64,000 nt of DNA from an uncultured Clostridia bacterium (GTDB lineage: Bacteria; Bacillota; Clostridia; Christensenellales; Aristaeellaceae), in contig CANRLC010000004.1 in assembly GCA_947631405.1 (NCBI GenBank), positions 21,635 through 85,634 on the forward strand, given 5' to 3'. Each line of letters opens with the position of its first letter. Positions within the stretch are counted from its first letter, which is position 1. The notes under the pieces were generated by a model. The model searched no databases. It worked only from the letters and a program-made list of their open reading frames with translations, and was not told where the DNA came from. A program made the position numbers and the translations under genes. Shown here piece after piece: positions 17,485 through 29,156 of this stretch.

Positions 17485-17561
17485 GCGCCCGTAGCTCAGT
17501 TGGATAGAGCGTCAGACTCCGACTCTGAAGGCCGCAGGTTCGAACCCTGTCGGACGCACCA
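17485..17561 (+). tRNA. tRNA-Arg (anticodon CCG), with encoded CCA
   Basis: The cloverleaf was folded by hand. The acceptor stem is GCGCCCG/CGGACGC with one C:A mismatch at 4:69. The D arm is GCTC-AGTTGGATA-GAGC. The anticodon stem is TCAGA/TCTGA with loop CTCCGAC. The T arm is GCAGG-TTCGAAC-CCTGT, followed by ACCA. Confidence 0.85.
17516..17561 (+). repeat. att copy 1 (attL of element 1): the last 46 nt of tRNA-Arg
   Basis: ACTCCGACTCTGAAGGCCGCAGGTTCGAACCCTGTCGGACGCACCA is identical at 31069-31114. It matches 45 of 46 positions at 35299-35344. Confidence 0.85.
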
Positions 17562-18971: not shown

Positions 18972-19571
18972 TCACTCTTCGCGCTGAAATGGAGATTCTG
19001 CCAAAGATTCAGACAAGCGCTCGAAGTGCTTTTGTTTCCATAAGGTAAACAATTCTTCGTCAATCTCCCCCGCCCGGTATAGTTCTAAATACCTTCGGTA
19101 CGGCTCAGAAAAACGCGCAGCGGCGGTATAGTAAATTTTCAGCGTAACACAGCCGTACTCGGTACATTTCCCAGTTTTTTCTTCTTCTTCCTCGCAATAG
19201 CGCTGTTCTTCCTCGTCAAGGCCAGGATACTCTTTCCAAGGAATATAGGAAGTGCTTATTTCCACAGGGACTAGTTTTGCTTCACATAATTTTGTAAAAT
19301 AATAAAGATATTCTCCGCCAGTCATTGGCTCTACTTTGTTTGCATCTTCAATCCCGCAAAGACTGTCCAGTGTCACGCCATAGTAACGGGCAAGCCGGAC
19401 AGCATAATCAAGCTGTGGTTGCTTCTTTCCTGTCTCATAGGCGGACAGCGCCGCGGCGGTCATTCCCACTTTTGCGGCTACTTCCTGCTGTGTCTTCCCT
19501 GCCTTTTTTCGCAGCGCAAGCAGATTTGCGGACAATGTTTTCAATTCCACCATACTACACGCACGCCCCAT
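18972..19571 (-). CDS. XRE-family HTH repressor (cI-like) with an unassigned C-terminal domain
   Basis: The N-terminus LRKKAGKTQQEVAAKVGMTAAALSAYETGKKQP is an HTH_XRE motif. The gene is divergent from the rightward early operon. The start may instead be the ATG at 19553. Confidence 0.8.
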   Translation of the reverse strand: MGRACSMVELKTLSANLLALRKKAGKTQQEVAAKVGMTAAALSAYETGKKQPQLDYAVRLARYYGVTLDSLCGIEDANKVEPMTGGEYLYYFTKLCEAKLVPVEISTSYIPWKEYPGLDEEEQRYCEEEEEKTGKCTEYGCVTLKIYYTAAARFSEPYRRYLELYRAGEIDEELFTLWKQKHFERLSESLAESPFQREE

Positions 19572-23950: not shown

Positions 23951-24339
23951 GCAACCGCAGGCAACGCCGCCCTGCTTCGTTCTGCGCCGTCTGAGGCTGT
24001 CAAAACAGGGCCTGTCGCGCGTTCCGGCTGGCTGGAGGTGCAGACGGTCGTTCCGATGTGGACGCGGCGAGAGAGCCTATTTTGACGGCCTGACGGGGCG
24101 CTGACGGGACGCACAGGAAACGGCAGAGCGCGAGCAGAAAACGCTTGTACAAAATGAAACAGGCCGGATTTCTCCGACCTGCTCATTGAGTAGGAACCCG
24201 GTCAAAGGTTCCTTTTACGATGAAAGGGATTTCTCCCTATCTGCCCAGCCGATCAAGGCCGGGCTTTTCGATACCTCAATGATAAAGCATATGTTGCGCC
24301 GTTGTCAAGAGTGCATCCCTGAAAATTTTTGCCGCTTTT

Positions 24340-24957
24340 TTATATTGCGAGCGCTTCTTGAATCCGTTGTTTCAAAGTTTGGTCTGAATTGGGAGACAGC
24401 TCTTTCTGCACATCGAGAAGCAGAGAACGCAAGACTTTTATCTTTTCTTCTTTTGCGTCTCCGCGCTTCTGCGCCGTCTCCAGCTTTCCTTCAACCGTCT
24501 TATAGTATCCGTATAGATCGGTAACAGAAGCAAGCGCGCGATCAACGGCAAGCATATCCGCCTTTGTAAGAACCGCTTTGCGCTGTGTAAGGCGGGCTTT
24601 GCTGACAGAACGTATTCCGGCAACATCAACATAGCCCTCAATCAGCAGCTTTCCTTGCGCATCCGTCTGCTGGGTAATTGGGACTAACAGAGCTGACTTT
24701 TTGCGCTGTGTCGCGTGCGTAATAGGGGCAACGCAAACACTTTGCCGATTTATAGATGTTGCGTCATTCTCAATAATCACACACGGATGATAGCCGCGCA
24801 ATTCTGTGCCAATATTATAGCCAAAATCGCATCCGTATACCTCGCCGCGTGTGACGCTGATCGTTTGGCCGGGAATGAGTCTTCGCGCCTTAATGTCCAG
24901 CTTTTTTTCTAGCCATTGAAGCTCGTCTTTTGTCTCTTGCAGGTCAATATTGGCCAT
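24340..24957 (-). CDS. MazF/PemK-fold toxin with N- and C-terminal coiled-coil-like extensions (205 aa)
   Basis: The core RGEVYGCDFGYNIGTELRGYHPCVIIEND...VCVAPITH...SVSKARL matches the PemK/MazF pattern (RGD-Y..DF.P..G.E..G.RP.vV.S.D...v..P.T). About 35 aa are added at the N-terminus and about 65 aa at the C-terminus. Confidence 0.65.
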   Translation of the reverse strand: MANIDLQETKDELQWLEKKLDIKARRLIPGQTISVTRGEVYGCDFGYNIGTELRGYHPCVIIENDATSINRQSVCVAPITHATQRKKSALLVPITQQTDAQGKLLIEGYVDVAGIRSVSKARLTQRKAVLTKADMLAVDRALASVTDLYGYYKTVEGKLETAQKRGDAKEEKIKVLRSLLLDVQKELSPNSDQTLKQRIQEALAI

Positions 24958-24972
24958 TGTGCATAGTCTCCT

Positions 24973-25176
24973 TTATTCTTCTTGCGGTTGCTTCCATTCG
25001 GCCTCTGACAGCTTCATATCTTCGCGGAGAAGCGTATTGACAAGGTTATTGACGGACATACCCTTTTCCCGTGCGTGCGCTTCTACGGCGCTTTTGCGCT
25101 CTTTAGGGATTGTAATGGCCAGTCGTGCATATGTGCGCTCATTGAAAGCGCGGCGGTAGTCTGTGGCTTTGGTCAT
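24973..25176 (-). CDS. Ribbon-helix-helix (CopG/Arc-like) antitoxin candidate
   Basis: This 67-aa ORF ends 15 nt upstream of the toxin gene and has the RBS GGAGGTG. YARLAITIPKERKSAVEAHAREKGMSVNNLVNTLL fits a beta-strand plus two-helix RHH layout. Confidence 0.6.
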   Translation of the reverse strand: MTKATDYRRAFNERTYARLAITIPKERKSAVEAHAREKGMSVNNLVNTLLREDMKLSEAEWKQPQEE

Positions 25177-25246
25177 GCTTTATCACCTCCATTATAAGCG
25201 GCCCTCCTCCACCCTGCAATGATTATATCAAAAAATCAAGAGTTTA

Positions 25247-25316
25247 TCTAGTGTTAGATTGCACAAGAATCTAGCGCTAGATTTGTTATGTCTAGTGCTA
25301 GACATCTAACGCTAGA
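25247..25316. promoter_or_regulatory. Four 12-bp palindromic operators (TCTAGnGnTAGA) overlapping divergent promoters
   Basis: The sites are TCTAGTGTTAGA (25247-25258), TCTAGCGCTAGA (25270-25281), TCTAGTGCTAGA (25291-25302) and TCTAACGCTAGA (25305-25316). The rightward promoter is TAGACA (25299-25304), 17 nt, then TGcTATACT (-10 at 25322-25327). The leftward TA promoter is TGaTATAAT (+ strand 25222-25227), with its -35 inside the first operator. Confidence 0.7.
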
Positions 25317-25465
25317 TGTGCTATACTCATAGTGTCGAAAGGGAAACCGCCCGGTGCTATGAGTGAGACGCTAGCCGCGCAGGATGACGCATAGGAGCCA
25401 GGGCACGAGCCGGGCGGGAACCCTGAAACAACACGAACGACCGACAAGCGAAAGGAGCAATCGCA

Positions 25466-25693
25466 ATGAAGTACAGCCGCTGGAACCGCACGATTAAGAG
25501 CCTCGCCGACGTGATCGAGCACGCGAACGAGATCAAGGCCGCGCAGGACAGGATGAACGCTCACGACCGGGACGAGGCCGACAACGAACTCGCGCTGATC
25601 GCTGACATGCTCCACCTGATGGGCAAGGAAATCCAATTCTTCCCTGACAGCGAAAGAAACTTCAAGGCCCATCTGATGAACCTTCCCGCCTGA
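25466..25693 (+). CDS. Hypothetical small protein (75 aa)
   Basis: The ORF has the RBS AAAGGAG. It is the first gene downstream of the operator-controlled rightward promoter. Confidence 0.5.
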   Translation: MKYSRWNRTIKSLADVIEHANEIKAAQDRMNAHDRDEADNELALIADMLHLMGKEIQFFPDSERNFKAHLMNLPA

Positions 25694-25814
25694 TGAGAGC
25701 TGGACGGCAACCAGCCGAAACGCCGCGAGGCGTAGCGGGACAGCCGAAAGTAGGGCGCAACCCTGACGGCGACCCTGACGGACGAACGACCGACACCGAA
25801 AAGGAGGCAAACCC

Positions 25815-26138
25815 ATGAAATTCAACCTTGCCGAGATCATGCGCCGCGCGTGGGAGATCAAGCGCGACCCGCGCCACGTCTACAGCTTCGGAACCTGCCT
25901 CAAGCTGGCATGGGCCGAGGCGAAGGGCGGCAAGCGCTACGGCGTCAACGTCGAGCTGGTGCGCGCGCAGGTCACGGCTTACATCGTCAAGCTGATGCGG
26001 AACATCCGCGACGAGCACGACGTCCACAAGCTGGAAGCGCTTCGGGCCGCGCTGCTGGCACCGATTGACCGGCACGGCGTTGCAGTGCTGGACGGCAAGA
26101 CGGCGGGCCTCGTGCGGTACGCTGTCCAGCACGCATGA
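25815..26138 (+). CDS. Hypothetical protein (107 aa)
   Basis: The ORF has the RBS AAGGAGG. Its leader is nearly identical to that of the preceding gene. Confidence 0.5.
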   Translation: MKFNLAEIMRRAWEIKRDPRHVYSFGTCLKLAWAEAKGGKRYGVNVELVRAQVTAYIVKLMRNIRDEHDVHKLEALRAALLAPIDRHGVAVLDGKTAGLVRYAVQHA

Positions 26139-26251
26139 AAAGAGCCGCCAAGGGCGGCAACCCTACGGCGGCGAGCGTCACCCAGGCAGACACGAACCGG
26201 GGGACGGCTCCAGTATAGCACGGGGCCGCCCTCCCACGCAAGGAGGAACGC

Positions 26252-26500
26252 ATGAACAACGTAACAATTCTGGCCGATGCGCTGCGAAGCGGGACGGCGA
26301 CACCTGACCAGATCGAAGCGGCGGCGGGCCTGTTGACCCGCTGGGCCGTGTTGCTGGCCGATGTGGAAGCGATGAGCGAATATCGCGCGCATTTTGTGGA
26401 ACTGCTGGCTAAAACTTATATCAAACTCGAACAGAAAGACAGCACGGAGGGAGGCGCAGAGCATGACAGCGGCAGAGCGGGAAGCGATGATTCTCAGTAA
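26252..26500 (+). CDS. Hypothetical protein (82 aa)
   Basis: The ORF has the RBS AAGGAGG and overlaps the start of the sigma-factor gene by 38 nt. Confidence 0.45.
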   Translation: MNNVTILADALRSGTATPDQIEAAAGLLTRWAVLLADVEAMSEYRAHFVELLAKTYIKLEQKDSTEGGAEHDSGRAGSDDSQ

Positions 26501-27044
26501 TCGCGGCCTTGTCGGCTTCGCGGCGCGGCGGTACAACCTGCCCGGCGCTGACGCGGATGACCTGTTCCAGATCGGCGCTATCGGGCTTATCAAGGCGGTT
26601 GACAGCTACGATGCGGGACGCGGCGTCAAGCTGGCTTCCTATGCCTTGCGCTGCATCGACAACGAGATTTTGATGGCCCTTCGTGTCAGTCAGAGACGCC
26701 GCCGGGAAGTTTCATTGGATTCGCCTTTGCTGGAGGACGCCAACAGCGGAAAGGCGCTGACGCTGGCCGACAAGCTGATAACGGAATCTGACACTGTGTT
26801 TGAAGCGGTGCGGCGGCAGATGCGGAATGAAGCGCTGCATAAGGCGCTGGAGGTTCTGAGCGAGCGAGAACGCGCTATCATCGTGGGACACTACGACCTC
26901 GACGGGCAAGGCGCGGTGAATCAAGCAGAACTGGCGCGGCGGATCGGCATCAGTCAGGGCTATGTGTCACGGCTGGAAAGGCACGCGCTCCACATCTTGA
27001 AAGCATACCTGACCGAGACGGGTACGGTCGAACAGACGGCATGA
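26463..27044 (+). CDS. Sigma-70 family RNA polymerase sigma factor (group 3, sporulation-sigma-like), element-encoded
   Basis: The start MTAAEREAMILSNRGLV follows GGAGGGAGG. Region 2 is DDLFQIGAIGLIKAVDSYD...KLASYALRCIDNEILM. The region 4 HTH is NQAELARRIGISQGYVSRLERHAL. Confidence 0.8.
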   Translation: MTAAEREAMILSNRGLVGFAARRYNLPGADADDLFQIGAIGLIKAVDSYDAGRGVKLASYALRCIDNEILMALRVSQRRRREVSLDSPLLEDANSGKALTLADKLITESDTVFEAVRRQMRNEALHKALEVLSERERAIIVGHYDLDGQGAVNQAELARRIGISQGYVSRLERHALHILKAYLTETGTVEQTA

Positions 27045-27083
27045 AGCCCGCACAAGTGAAGGAATAGACAGGAGGTTTCAAGC

Positions 27084-27305
27084 ATGACTGACACTTTGGC
27101 GCAGATTCGACGGTATATCAAGAATACGCGCAGCGACATTCCAGAAGGTTTTCAGGCGCGCTTGTCTGAGATCGTGGCGCTCGTGCAAATGTCACGGCGC
27201 GAAGATATTGTAGACGCCTTTTCACTTGCATTTAACTTTGGATTTGCTAAAGGCGTGAGATACACCAAACAGGAGAACAAGAAACGCCGCTTGACAAGAA
27301 GCTAG
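27084..27305 (+). CDS. Hypothetical protein (73 aa)
   Basis: The ORF has the RBS ACAGGAGG. It is followed by the hairpin GCCCGCCGCGTGCGGGC and then CTTTCTT. Confidence 0.45.
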   Translation: MTDTLAQIRRYIKNTRSDIPEGFQARLSEIVALVQMSRREDIVDAFSLAFNFGFAKGVRYTKQENKKRRLTRS

Positions 27306-27443
27306 CCCGCCGCGTGCGGGCCTTTCTTGATTATCAGGGTTGCCAGGGCCCTGACAAGGCTGTCTGGTCTGCTTCATGATAGCCTTTCTTCTGCCCTGCT
27401 GGCCCTGTGCTGACAGCGACGGGCACGGGCCGAACGCGAGCCA

Positions 27444-27487
27444 TTTGTGCGCCGTTTGTGCGCCGTTTTCGCGCCGTTTGATGCGAT
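27444..27487 (+). repeat. Four helically phased 11-bp direct repeats
   Basis: TTTGTGCGCCG, TTTGTGCGCCG, TTTTCGCGCCG and TTTGATGCGAT lie head to tail in a non-coding stretch. Confidence 0.7.
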
Positions 27488-27546
27488 GCGCAGAGGCCCA
27501 CGGCTGGAGGGGTAGATTAAACCGACCGCCGATTGAACAAGCGGTA

Positions 27547-27646
27547 TTCAAAGGGTGTAGGTTGAAGCGACACCCTTTTGAACGGGCGCTGTTCAAGGGT
27601 GTAAGTTGAAGTGACACCCTTTGCAAGCTGGTGTCAGTTGAACCGA
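27547..27646 (+). repeat. Two and a half copies of a hairpin/inverted-repeat unit of about 35 bp containing GTTGAA
   Basis: The first unit is TTCAAAGGGTGT-AGGTTGAAGCG-ACACCCTTTTGAA (27547-27582). The second is TTCAAGGGTGT-AAGTTGAAGTG-ACACCCTTTGCAA (27592-27626). A half unit GGTGTCAGTTGAACCGAC (27630-27647) follows. Confidence 0.7.
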
Positions 27647-27801
27647 CGGCAGCTATAATACCGTCACTTGAACTTACGCTATTCGCGCCGTGCGGGCACG
27701 CAGAGAATAAAAAACATCCTGCGCCCGCCGGGACAACGGACGCAGGGAGAAATGAAGATGTGCGCGAATGAAACGGAAACCGACCACAGGAGGATATATT
27801 T

Positions 27802-27984
27802 ATGATAACACAAGCGCGCAGACGTGTCAAGCCAAGCAGAGACACGGCCCTTTATGCTGTCAAGGGAACGCGCCGAGCGAGGCATGCCGCCGGGGTAATA
27901 AGGGGGCGTGCGCGCGGTGCGGGGGTAACTCCCGCGAGCACCCGAGCAAAACAAAAAGGCGCTATTTCAATCTGCCCGCGCTGA
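27802..27984 (+). CDS. Arginine-rich small protein candidate (60 aa)
   Basis: The strong RBS AGGAGG lies 7 nt upstream of the ATG. The translation is MITQARRRVKPSRDTALYAVKGTRRARHAAGVIRGRARG.... No homology was recognised, and the high Arg content could also arise by chance in GC-rich DNA. Confidence 0.35.
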   Translation: MITQARRRVKPSRDTALYAVKGTRRARHAAGVIRGRARGAGVTPASTRAKQKGAISICPR

Positions 27985-28148
27985 CAGCTATGAATAAGGG
28001 CTATCTGCTGGCCGGGAAAGCCTAGATCGAATCGAGCCTTTCTGTGCTGGCGGCATTTGTACGGGTCAAAGCATAAAAGGCGCTATCTGGCAGAAACGAA
28101 GCGGCCCGCCGTGTGTGTAGAGCGGTACTGTCTGGCGCAAAATGGGAC

Positions 28149-28177
28149 TTGACTAGACTAGTGAAATATGATAGAAT
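28149..28177 (+). promoter_or_regulatory. Promoter of the alpA-terS (packaging) operon
   Basis: TTGACT (28149-28154), a 17-nt spacer and TAGAAT (28172-28177) are present. Confidence 0.6.
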
Positions 28178-28260
28178 AATAAGTGAACGGGACGCCCGGA
28201 ACCTGACGGACGCCGCCGAAATCGGACGCCTGCGACTGGGCAGGCGGAGACAGCCGACAA

Positions 28261-28300
28261 GGGCTATAAGGTGCGATTGTGCGCCTTGTGGCCCTTTTTT
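28261..28300 (+). terminator. Intrinsic terminator inside the packaging-operon leader
   Basis: GGGC...AAGGTGC-GATTGT-GCGCCTT...GCCC is followed by TTTTTT (28295-28300). It lies between the promoter and the first gene, whose ATG is at 28340. Confidence 0.6.
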
Positions 28301-28339
28301 GCATCTTCCCAATTTTTCAGGCAGAAAGGAGTACGAACG

Positions 28340-28570
28340 ATGGAGAACCTACACGACCAAAGGGAAATAAGCCGGGCGTGGCGCGTCTCACGGAGCCTGT
28401 TTTACCGTCTCAGGCGGCTTCCTGACTGGCCGGAACCCGTCCGCCTTGGTAGACGCACGCTTTACCGAGAAACCGATTTAAGCGCGTTCCTAGAGCGCCA
28501 CACGGGCTTGCAGACGGGACAGCACGAGCGAAAACAGAAAGGAGGGCTGACAGATGGCGGCACGGACTAA
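28340..28570 (+). CDS. AlpA-family HTH transcriptional regulator
   Basis: ISRAWRVSRSLFYRLRRLPDWPEPVRLGRRTLYRETDLSAFLE matches the Phage_AlpA pattern (GvSrstiYrl...FP.Pv.lg.r...W...ev..Wl). The RBS is AAAGGAG. Confidence 0.7.
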   Translation: MENLHDQREISRAWRVSRSLFYRLRRLPDWPEPVRLGRRTLYRETDLSAFLERHTGLQTGQHERKQKGGLTDGGTD

Positions 28571-29156
28571 AACGGACACACAAGCAAGAAAGACTTCGCT
28601 GCGAGCCGTCGGCGGTCAGATTCAGAGCAACAGGAACAACATGCCGGGACACGCAAAGCTGATGACTGAGGACGGCGACAACGGGCGGTATGTTCGCCAC
28701 GCTTTGACAGCTATGGATTTGCCGCCTATCGACATTTCCGACCCGGCACAGGTCGAACAGCGAATCCGCGAATACTTCCAATACTGCGAAGAACAAGATT
28801 GTAGACCGGGCTTTGTCGCGCTGGCAAATTGGATTGGAATTGACCGCACGACGCTTAACTCATGGAAACGCGGCGAATACAGGAACACCACGCACTCCCA
28901 CATCATCAAAAAAGCGGTTTCACTTTTGGAGGGAATTTGGGAGGAACTTATGGCAGAAGGGCGGATAAACCCTGTTGTCGGGATTTGGATGGGCAAACAG
29001 TATTATCAGCAATCCGACCGGCAAGAGCTGGCAATCACGCAAGATCATGAGGTTCGCCCAGCCCTGACGGTAGATGAAATCTGTAAAAACCTGCCAGAAA
29101 TAGACGAATCGCTGTATCTTGACGCTGACGCCTCCAGCTACGATGAAGGAGCGTGA
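28554..29156 (+). CDS. terS: Terminase small subunit (TerS)
   Basis: QRIREYFQYCEEQDCRPGFVALANWIGIDRTTLNSWKRGE...INPVVGIWMGKQYYQQSDRQE fits the HTH-type TerS pattern (PT..GLA..LGI.r.TL..w....n..g.IF.lKn.fG..D). The RBS is AGGAGGG. No large-subunit gene follows. Confidence 0.7.
   Translation: MAARTKTDTQARKTSLRAVGGQIQSNRNNMPGHAKLMTEDGDNGRYVRHALTAMDLPPIDISDPAQVEQRIREYFQYCEEQDCRPGFVALANWIGIDRTTLNSWKRGEYRNTTHSHIIKKAVSLLEGIWEELMAEGRINPVVGIWMGKQYYQQSDRQELAITQDHEVRPALTVDEICKNLPEIDESLYLDADASSYDEGA

Follow-up and report, generated by a model that had tools for sequence, protein, structure and literature searches.

A probable phage-type immunity switch formed by an Arc-like ribbon-helix-helix repressor and its operator array, with a MazF-like gene as cargo, in a satellite element of an uncultured Clostridia bacterium

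Which protein acts on an array of four palindromes that fills the space between two divergent operons of a phage satellite, and what would it keep silent? The array lies in a stretch of 64,000 nt from an uncultured Clostridia bacterium (contig CANRLC010000004.1; this whole stretch is called the window, and all positions are those of the window), where it separates a leftward gene for a small ribbon-helix-helix (RHH) protein (24973–25176, minus strand), followed by a gene for a MazF-like protein (24340–24957, minus strand), from a rightward series of small open reading frames (ORFs) with a sigma-factor gene among them. The initial annotation had taken the two leftward genes for a toxin-antitoxin (TA) pair whose complex would repress the sigma-factor operon as well as its own. 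The window locus (WIN) was compared with related loci (numbered with the prefix L), and the sites, their uniqueness, their conserved geometry, the co-variation of protein and operator and a natural cassette swap were computed. On these grounds, we consider it probable (at approximately 0.78) that the palindromes are operators of the RHH protein and that the array forms, together with its divergent promoters, an immunity switch of the phage type, in which the MazF-like gene is carried as cargo.

The intergenic region between the RHH gene and the first rightward ORF (orfA, which begins at 25466) holds four 14-bp palindromes between 25246 and 25317, with the consensus RTCTARnGnTAGAY. The first, O1 (ATCTAGTGTTAGAT, 25246–25259), overlaps the −35 box of the predicted leftward promoter P_L; the perfect palindrome O2 (ATCTAGCGCTAGAT, 25269–25282) lies between both promoters; O3 (GTCTAGTGCTAGAC, 25290–25303) overlaps the −35 box (TAGACA) of the predicted rightward promoter P_R and abuts O4 (ATCTAACGCTAGAT, 25304–25317), which fills the P_R spacer. 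The site coordinates, with start-to-start spacings of 23, 21 and 14 bp, and a motif scan bear out the four palindromes and the spacings that the initial annotation had listed. When TCTAGNGNTAGA was searched with at most one mismatch, all seven strand-matches in the window fell within the array (1.05 expected; none of 100 shuffles reached seven), and the array is the sole occurrence of the zero-mismatch motif in the whole 2.28-Mb genome, where the RHH gene is single-copy. The tetranucleotide CTAG is approximately eight-fold depleted in the window (26 observed vs. approximately 217 expected from base composition), and six of these 26 copies sit in the 72-bp array; every other 80-bp stretch holds at most two.

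Two promoters were predicted by consensus scan, P_L for the operon of the RHH and MazF-like genes (25250–25222, minus strand; TAGATA at 25250–25245, 17 nt, TGaTATAAT at 25230–25222) and P_R for the operon of leader, small ORFs and sigma factor (25299–25327, plus strand; TAGACA at 25299–25304, 17 nt, TGcTATACT at 25319–25327), and the same scan agrees with the overlaps listed in the initial annotation, of the first site with the leftward −35 box and of the third and fourth with the rightward −35 box and spacer. For comparison, RHH homologues (41 clusters) were traced to approximately 80 loci from genomes, viral contigs and metagenomes, whose genes were taken from tblastn with the window proteins, from the called genes of the encoding contigs and from Shine-Dalgarno-anchored ORFs; the statistics omit about 15 loci whose upstream regions are short or atypical and in which automatic operator discovery failed or was unreliable. 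Most loci belong to gut and rumen bacteria (Christensenellales, 'Limiplasma' and unclassified Clostridia), and nearly every one has two to four palindromes upstream of the RHH gene, with sequences that vary between loci. In approximately 55 of 59 loci, the centre of the distal operator falls within the P_R spacer, 9–12 bp past the midpoint of a TTGAnA-like −35 box and 11–14 bp ahead of a TATAaT −10 box on the divergent strand, while the proximal one is centred on the P_L −35 box (33 loci) or 4–6 bp upstream of it (19 loci; 52 of 59 together), with TATAAT 21–28 bp downstream. A middle operator is found in nearly all of them, and the abutting distal pair, with centres 14 bp apart, recurs in loci of the same operator type (L039, L042, L015, L031, and L099). 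Such conserved geometry reads as a phylogenetic footprint that supports both promoters and their occlusion by the operators, and control of both promoters by one array appears strongly supported by the comparison.

The register with the promoters also bears on a different role for the array, namely that it serves mainly as a centromere-like or origin-like site, or as a hairpin or terminator in RNA. The former has a model in omega and ParG, RHH proteins that occupy repeat arrays in a centromere-binding role (PMC3074150, PMC3130281), and a terminator scan flags a hairpin of O1 and O2 followed by a T-rich run. Both roles are nevertheless highly improbable, given that the sites keep step with −35 and −10 boxes on both sides in approximately 55 of 59 loci and that no ParA-type ATPase gene was identified among the 20 ORFs of the element scanned against Pfam. 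The terminator was rejected on position, since O1 and O2 lie between the two predicted divergent −35 boxes and would not be transcribed.

A short motif of another kind, TTGTGCA(A/T), was seen between the proximal and middle operators (window 25259–25267, TTGCACAAG). It recurs at the same position in L009, L023, L040, L094, and others, across different operator types, fits neither predicted promoter, and could be a site for a second factor.

The identity of the binder was approached through co-variation between operators and RHH proteins, using 51 non-redundant combinations from 59 loci. The central 3 bp of each half-site follow positions 18, 20, and 22 of the predicted beta-strand (Mantel r = 0.67, p = 2e−4; partial r = 0.59 given the N-terminal arm), the outer 6 bp follow the N-terminal arm (Mantel r = 0.62; partial r = 0.63 given the triad), and neither core nor outer bases track the C-terminal half of the protein (r = 0.00 and 0.05). 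Thus sorted, the triad R-A-T goes with the central bases CTA(A/G)C·G(C/T)TAG, R-N-T with TTGC·GCAA, R-N-K with GG(G/A)C, x-R-V with TTGT·ACAA, and E-K-R or D-R-R with GGTACC-like centres (dots mark the dyad). Among the arms, T-x-Y-K accompanies outer ATCT...AGAT around four different cores (window type, L054, L068, and L060), SAVKxRYN or TVKDRWN accompanies ATACT...AGTAT, and KAQQxAVxKY accompanies TATAT...ATATA. Recognition apparently follows a modular two-part code, in which the arm would read the outer bases and the sheet the centre, and whose parts seem to have been naturally recombined into more than 20 specificities. A single contig of a metagenome-assembled genome (JAFXQO010000081.1) was also observed to carry two RHH switch modules, L094 and L029, approximately 9 kb apart; they differ in operator type (ACTTGTACAAGT vs. 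ATACTGAGGTTAGTAT-like), which fits heteroimmune elements lying side by side.

An exchange that occurred in nature points to the same protein. L040 and L041, from two Logan assemblies, represent the same satellite as that of the window (MazF-like protein 98–99%, orfA 96%, orfB 90–92%, and integrase 97% identical). The DNA identity between WIN and L040 amounts to 89% in the leader, 42% over the operators, P_L, the 5′ untranslated region and RHH codons 1–27, and 97–98% from RHH codon 28 into mazF. The exchanged cassette codes for the RHH N-terminus alone; in L040 and L041 its strand reads RLNVKL in place of the RLAITI of the window, and its operators are three copies of TATATGGACGCCAATATA. The converse cases are L039, with an RHH protein 84% identical and with the same N-terminus, other downstream DNA and no MazF-like gene, and L099, with the arm and strand type of the window and MazF-203 downstream: both share the four-site ATCT...AGAT array of the window, down to the abutting distal pair. 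Judged by these exchanges, the operators and the RHH N-terminus behave as an immunity cassette, as known from heteroimmunity, which argues with high confidence that the adjacent RHH protein is the binder of the palindromes.

The palindromes might instead be bound by another protein, such as the cI-like helix-turn-helix (HTH) protein that the element does encode (18972–19571) or a host factor, with the RHH gene as a mere neighbour. The cI-like protein of L040 is likewise different from that of the window (60% identity), so that this comparison alone is not decisive. It was rejected as the common binder because no cI homologue occurs in the fetched flanks (2.5–6 kb, less at contig ends) of the other loci with TCTAG-type operators (L009, L010, L015, L031, L039, L042, and L099). 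A host factor, for its part, cannot account for more than 20 specificities, the operators track RHH N-terminal residues across all these types, and the swapped cassette of L040 encodes no part of any protein other than the RHH N-terminus, all of which makes a different binder extremely improbable.

The preferred binder, a protein of 67 aa, was classed as a putative Arc-like RHH repressor on the basis of PHROG matches, an AlphaFold2 (AF2) model and the operator co-variation. Its layout comprises an N-terminal arm (residues 1–17), a beta-strand (R18–I23), helices at 25–37 and 42–53, and the conserved tail LSEAEWK. It matches PHROG 13890 (unknown function) at 1e−14 and PHROG 582 ('Arc-like repressor') at E = 3e−5. 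The AF2 model is beta-alpha-alpha, extended at residues 16–24 and helical at 25–37 and 42–53, with a core pLDDT of 83–90. All top PDB matches found with Foldseek are RHH proteins, the best being P22 Arc (probability 0.85–0.99, rmsd 1.1–1.9 Å), followed by RHH antitoxins, AmrZ, AvtR, and ParD; by its modelled fold, the protein would belong to the RHH (Arc/MetJ/CopG) superfamily. A search of GenBank phages with the protein returned remote matches only (≤ 44% identity, in metagenomic viruses), and the DNA from 24300 to 27350 gave just one weak match of 123 bp among GenBank phages.

As to what we infer from these patterns, namely actual binding, repression, stoichiometry and co-transcription as far as the sigma gene, the switch would work as follows. 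One RHH dimer would most likely occupy each palindrome, its two-stranded beta-sheet (R18, A20, and T22) reading the central CTAG-NN-CTAG bases and its N-terminal arms (T5-x-Y7-R/K8) the outer AT/TC bases. Bound at O3 and O4, the protein would occlude the −35 box and the spacer of P_R and so keep off the leader, three small ORFs, the sigma gene and a fifth small ORF, in an operon that would head the whole rightward (packaging) arm of the 13.5-kb satellite, with its integrase, primase and terS genes. On the other side, O1 on the −35 box of P_L would let the RHH protein autoregulate its own gene together with the MazF-like gene in the same transcript. Since two operators (O3 and O4) cover P_R and one (O1) covers P_L, repression is expected to be tight at P_R and autoregulation milder at P_L. 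The layout is that of an immunity switch, in that the repressor gene diverges from an early operon and several operators lie over both promoters, and the RHH family would serve a group of phages and satellites of Christensenellales-like Clostridia as their maintenance or immunity repressor. The proposal of the initial annotation that the RHH protein binds the palindromes and represses both promoters is upheld insofar as co-variation, swap and geometry make this protein the best candidate binder and place the array on both promoters. The view of the module as a TA array governing a sigma operon is not supported, as the module appears to be a conserved switch of phages and satellites and not a TA array recruited by the sigma operon.

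Several points weigh against this reading. At the level of sequence, support for the RHH fold is weak: the Pfam RHH_5 match (E = 0.0095) lies below the cut-off, and a PDB sequence search with the RHH profile gave no significant match. The Foldseek E-values of the model are likewise ≥ 0.2, owing to the shortness of the domain. For an RHH N-terminal arm, reading of specific bases would be unusual; the arm of ArtA touches phosphates only (PMC2777438). P_L and P_R are consensus predictions with weak −35 boxes (4/6), and internal promoters may exist upstream of the sigma gene. The sigma gene lies inside the divergent operon in the window only, and in L028, L064, L094, and L095 it is found elsewhere, convergent to the RHH gene; the sigma wiring is therefore a feature of this satellite and not of the switch family. 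Finally, part of the co-variation could be recombinational linkage, because operators and N-terminal codons adjoin on the DNA; as far as the compared loci show, such linkage cannot explain the independent assortment of arm and strand types, each of which predicts a different part of every operator copy.

Whether the MazF-like protein is a partner of the RHH protein or a passenger behind it is a separate question. The toxin-like protein (here MazF-205) has 205 aa and the PemK/MazF fold with N- and C-terminal extensions (Pfam PemK_toxin 2e−20 over residues 37–145; PHROG 1936, 'MazF-like growth inhibitor'). All MazF-205 relatives that were inspected carry ELRGYHPCV (ELRDSHPCV in L100) at the place where canonical MazF/PemK proteins have an R-P motif with a catalytic Arg, and they share the N-terminal extension MxNIDLxETxxELQWLEKKL and a helical C-terminal extension of approximately 60 aa.

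According to the first of the two views, the RHH protein and MazF-205 form a true type II TA pair, in which the RHH tail neutralises the toxin, the complex represses by conditional cooperativity, and loss of the antitoxin both frees the toxin and switches on the sigma operon. As an arrangement only, the locus is what such a pair would have: a small gene directly upstream of a toxin gene that begins 15 nt after the RHH stop codon, with O1 on the −35 box of P_L and no other small gene in the window on offer as antitoxin. The conserved acidic Trp tail (SEAEWK) presumably resembles antitoxin tails. Seen from the toxin, whose family comprises 21 clusters, a gene of the RHH type precedes MazF-205 on the same strand and with the same operator layout in eight of nine distinct contexts. 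Two independent rearrangements also count in favour of an antitoxin role, as the C-terminal part of the RHH protein was kept beside mazF in both: the swap between WIN and L040 leaves RHH codons 28–67 with mazF, and L098 retains an RHH C-terminal remnant directly upstream of mazF. RHH antitoxins of MazF-type toxins are known as well, e.g., MazE6 (PMC9477884).

The distribution of the genes points the other way. MazF-205 stands behind the RHH gene in three of the approximately 80 loci found with the RHH query (the window, L040, and L041, the only ones of these with a MazF-like gene at all), so that the two are not inherited as a cognate pair would be. In addition, the RHH proteins linked to MazF-205 belong to at least four C-terminal subtypes, L096 has MazF-205 without an RHH gene, the gap between the two genes widens to 445 nt with an intervening gene in L097 and to 166 nt in L098, and MazF-205 may be controlled in cis by its own extensions. 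The slot behind the RHH gene holds a ParE toxin in L074, Gp49/HigB-like proteins in L011 and L056, DUF4160 in L023 and L064, DUF4258 in L029 and L072, HicB-like proteins in L066, L070, and L082, SocA/Panacea in L046 and L073, Bro-N in L010, an HTH antidote-like protein in L021, an integrase in L012, L013, and L059, and in some loci nothing. Across these classes of cargo, the C-terminal halves of the RHH proteins, including the tail LSEAEWK, are equally conserved and indistinguishable. Because the slot genes vary, the C-terminal halves are generic and the MazF-linked RHH proteins are of several subtypes, we read the slot as a variable cargo slot in the transcript of the repressor, which collects TA and defence-type genes, and the RHH family as probably not a dedicated antitoxin family.

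On balance, a cognate TA pair at this locus is possible but doubtful, and the same holds for a true antitoxin role of the RHH protein taken by itself. Repression by a complex of the two proteins, as put forward in the initial annotation, is likewise less probable than not, because MazF is rare, the slot is variable and the C-terminal halves are the same across cargo. Less probable still, and in our judgement unlikely, is that the RHH protein acts as a dual hub, being both the immunity repressor and, through its acidic Trp tail, a generic neutraliser of any toxin in the slot (MazF-205 here, ParE or others elsewhere). Were this the case, loss of the RHH protein, by proteolysis or through an anti-repressor of a helper phage, would release an abortive-infection toxin and start the sigma-factor programme at the same time.

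Two details of the slot were recorded alongside. In several loci (L010–L100), the next gene overlaps the stop codon of the RHH gene. In L098 (871–1036), the remnant between an RHH gene of a different type and mazF codes for ...EAGESINQYMQKALLARMGLPEWPAAGVPEED, the C-terminal part of another RHH subtype, which may be either a recombination scar or a retained tail peptide.

The switch is part of an element of 13.5 kb that adjoins a tRNA-Arg(CCG) gene (17485–17561, beside the integrase). Its left part consists of the genes for a tyrosine integrase, the cI-like HTH protein, HTH_17, a prim-pol/helicase and a ParB-like/MT-A70 methylase, followed by the leftward MazF-like and RHH genes, and its rightward part of three small ORFs, a SigK/SigE-like sigma factor, a 73-aa ORF, a gene-poor stretch, an AlpA-like gene and a small-terminase-like gene. 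With integrase, cI-like HTH, HTH_17, prim-pol/DUF927 helicase and a GP3_package terS-like protein all found, the gene content fits a phage satellite similar to phage-inducible chromosomal islands (PICI-like). Since every gene between P_R and the right end of the element is oriented rightward, P_R heads its regulatory and packaging arm. The predicted P_R operon, on the plus strand, starts with a leader of approximately 130 nt (25334–25465) and continues with orfA (25466–25693), orfB (25815–26138), orfC (26252–26500), the sigma gene (26463–27044; its SigK/SigE-like matches stay below equivalog cut-offs) and orfE (27084–27305), the fifth small ORF, of 73 aa. No plus-strand terminator was predicted between P_R and the sigma gene, and this uninterrupted run, together with the consensus match of P_R, accords with the rightward promoter that had been proposed to lead into three small ORFs and the sigma factor. 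A GC-rich, terminator-like hairpin (GCCCGCCGCGTGCGGGC, then CTTTCTTGAT; 27305–27321, plus strand) directly after the orfE stop codon is the likely end of the operon.

The leader itself holds a conserved and probably structured RNA of approximately 100 nt (25338–25440, plus strand), which was found in nine of 71 loci (the window, L011, L023, L028, L039, L040, L041, L042, and L097). It has the invariant blocks CCGGTGCTAT, GTGAGACG, and GCCAGGGCACGAGCCGG, and RNAalifold proposes 22 pairs, 10 of them with compensatory changes. A search of 24000–28600 against Rfam (E ≤ 1) matched neither the leader nor the array to a known RNA family, and the leader may represent a new cis-regulatory RNA in the early operons of phages. 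A second conserved leader type, unrelated to the first, was noticed in L019, L029, and L094 between the operators and the first divergent gene (...CATTTGACC(G/T)CCGGGC(T/G)GCCATTGCGTTC...).

Among relatives, the first conserved gene after P_R is orfB-like and codes for approximately 107 aa (L011, L023, L025, L027, L039, L040, L042, L085, L094, L098, and L100); in L039 it is followed by the phage early genes DUF2800/PDDEXK, AntA, and Bro-N. Its product (MKxxLxxIMxxAWxxxR...LAWAEAKG), whose gene is better conserved across operator types than any other in the divergent operon, has weak PHROG and Pfam matches only and is a candidate counter-regulator, analogous to Cro or to an anti-repressor.

Among known systems, immI of phage P22 (Arc/Mnt; Pant/Pmnt) is close in design, being likewise based on a small phage-borne RHH autorepressor with operators between and over divergent promoters, and P22 Arc is both the best structural match of the model and the name-giver of a PHROG match. 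Arc itself has no significant similarity to the RHH protein of the window at the level of Pfam or PDB sequences; it binds one 21-bp operator as a dimer of dimers, whereas the palindromes here are separate, measure 14–18 bp among loci and probably take one dimer each, and the family described here has an arm of 17–20 residues that apparently adds base specificity. Knight and Sauer reportedly found in 1989 that an exchange of a few residues at the N-termini of Arc and Mnt switched their operator specificity, a laboratory analogue of the natural swap between WIN and L040. The OR region of phage lambda (cI/Cro) resembles the present locus in its repressor gene divergent from an early operon and its three or four operators over both promoters, and in heteroimmune lambdoid mosaics the DNA-binding part of the repressor and the operators are exchanged together, as here. 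Behind lambda cI lie rexAB, non-essential genes of defence type, to which the cargo slot behind the RHH gene can be likened. The differences from lambda are that the switch is of the RHH and not the HTH type, that no analogue of Cro was identified, and that the element has a separate cI-like HTH/integrase module, i.e., a second switch in one satellite.

The omega-epsilon-zeta system of pSM19035 is comparable in that an RHH dimer on repeat arrays links a toxin operon with further functions of the mobile element (PMC4627068). There the antitoxin is epsilon and not omega, and omega binds 7-bp heptads at three separate promoters, in contrast to the 14-bp palindromes of the present array, and no separate antitoxin gene lies between the RHH gene and MazF-205. 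ArtA of pSK41 has nearly the same topology as the RHH protein of the window (beta 17–23, alpha 26–38, alpha from 43 onward, with an N-terminal arm of 16 residues) and can be likened to it in placing one dimer on each site, with sites that overlap promoter elements; its arm makes backbone or protein-protein contacts only and its site is the 5-bp TGACA, whereas the arm here co-varies with the outer operator bases (PMC2777438). Coupling of an antitoxin to further transcription, which the initial annotation had thought undescribed, has precedents: MqsA and MqsRA bind other promoters, DinJ lowers RpoS, mazEF of S. aureus reads through into the sigB operon (PMC3920265, PMC4996492), and mazEF of Listeria lies directly upstream of the sigB operon (PMC5308263). 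Because TA or antitoxin coupling to other genes, including sigma factors, is already known, the conceptual novelty of that proposal is limited, although in MqsA, DinJ, and mazEF-sigB the link acts in trans or by read-through in the same direction, whereas here one array lies on two divergent promoters and the antitoxin role is putative. What does seem new, as far as sequences can tell, is an uncharacterised family of Arc-like repressors with more than 20 natural specificities, a readout, apparently in two parts, to which the N-terminal arm adds base specificity, a slot for defence and toxin cargo behind the repressor gene and, in this satellite, a sigma-factor operon as the probable target of repression.

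For PHROG 13890, annotated as of unknown function and without a Pfam family above threshold, these results provide a concrete and testable regulatory model. The natural table of RHH specificities, which comprises about 20 protein/operator pairs and has separable sheet and arm parts, could guide the design of orthogonal RHH repressors (cf. PMC3413123). The cargo slot bears on how prophages and satellites express defence genes while otherwise silent, and in many phages and satellites of gut and rumen Clostridia of the Christensenellales-like kind, organisms with almost no genetics, the family as a whole appears to be the master switch.

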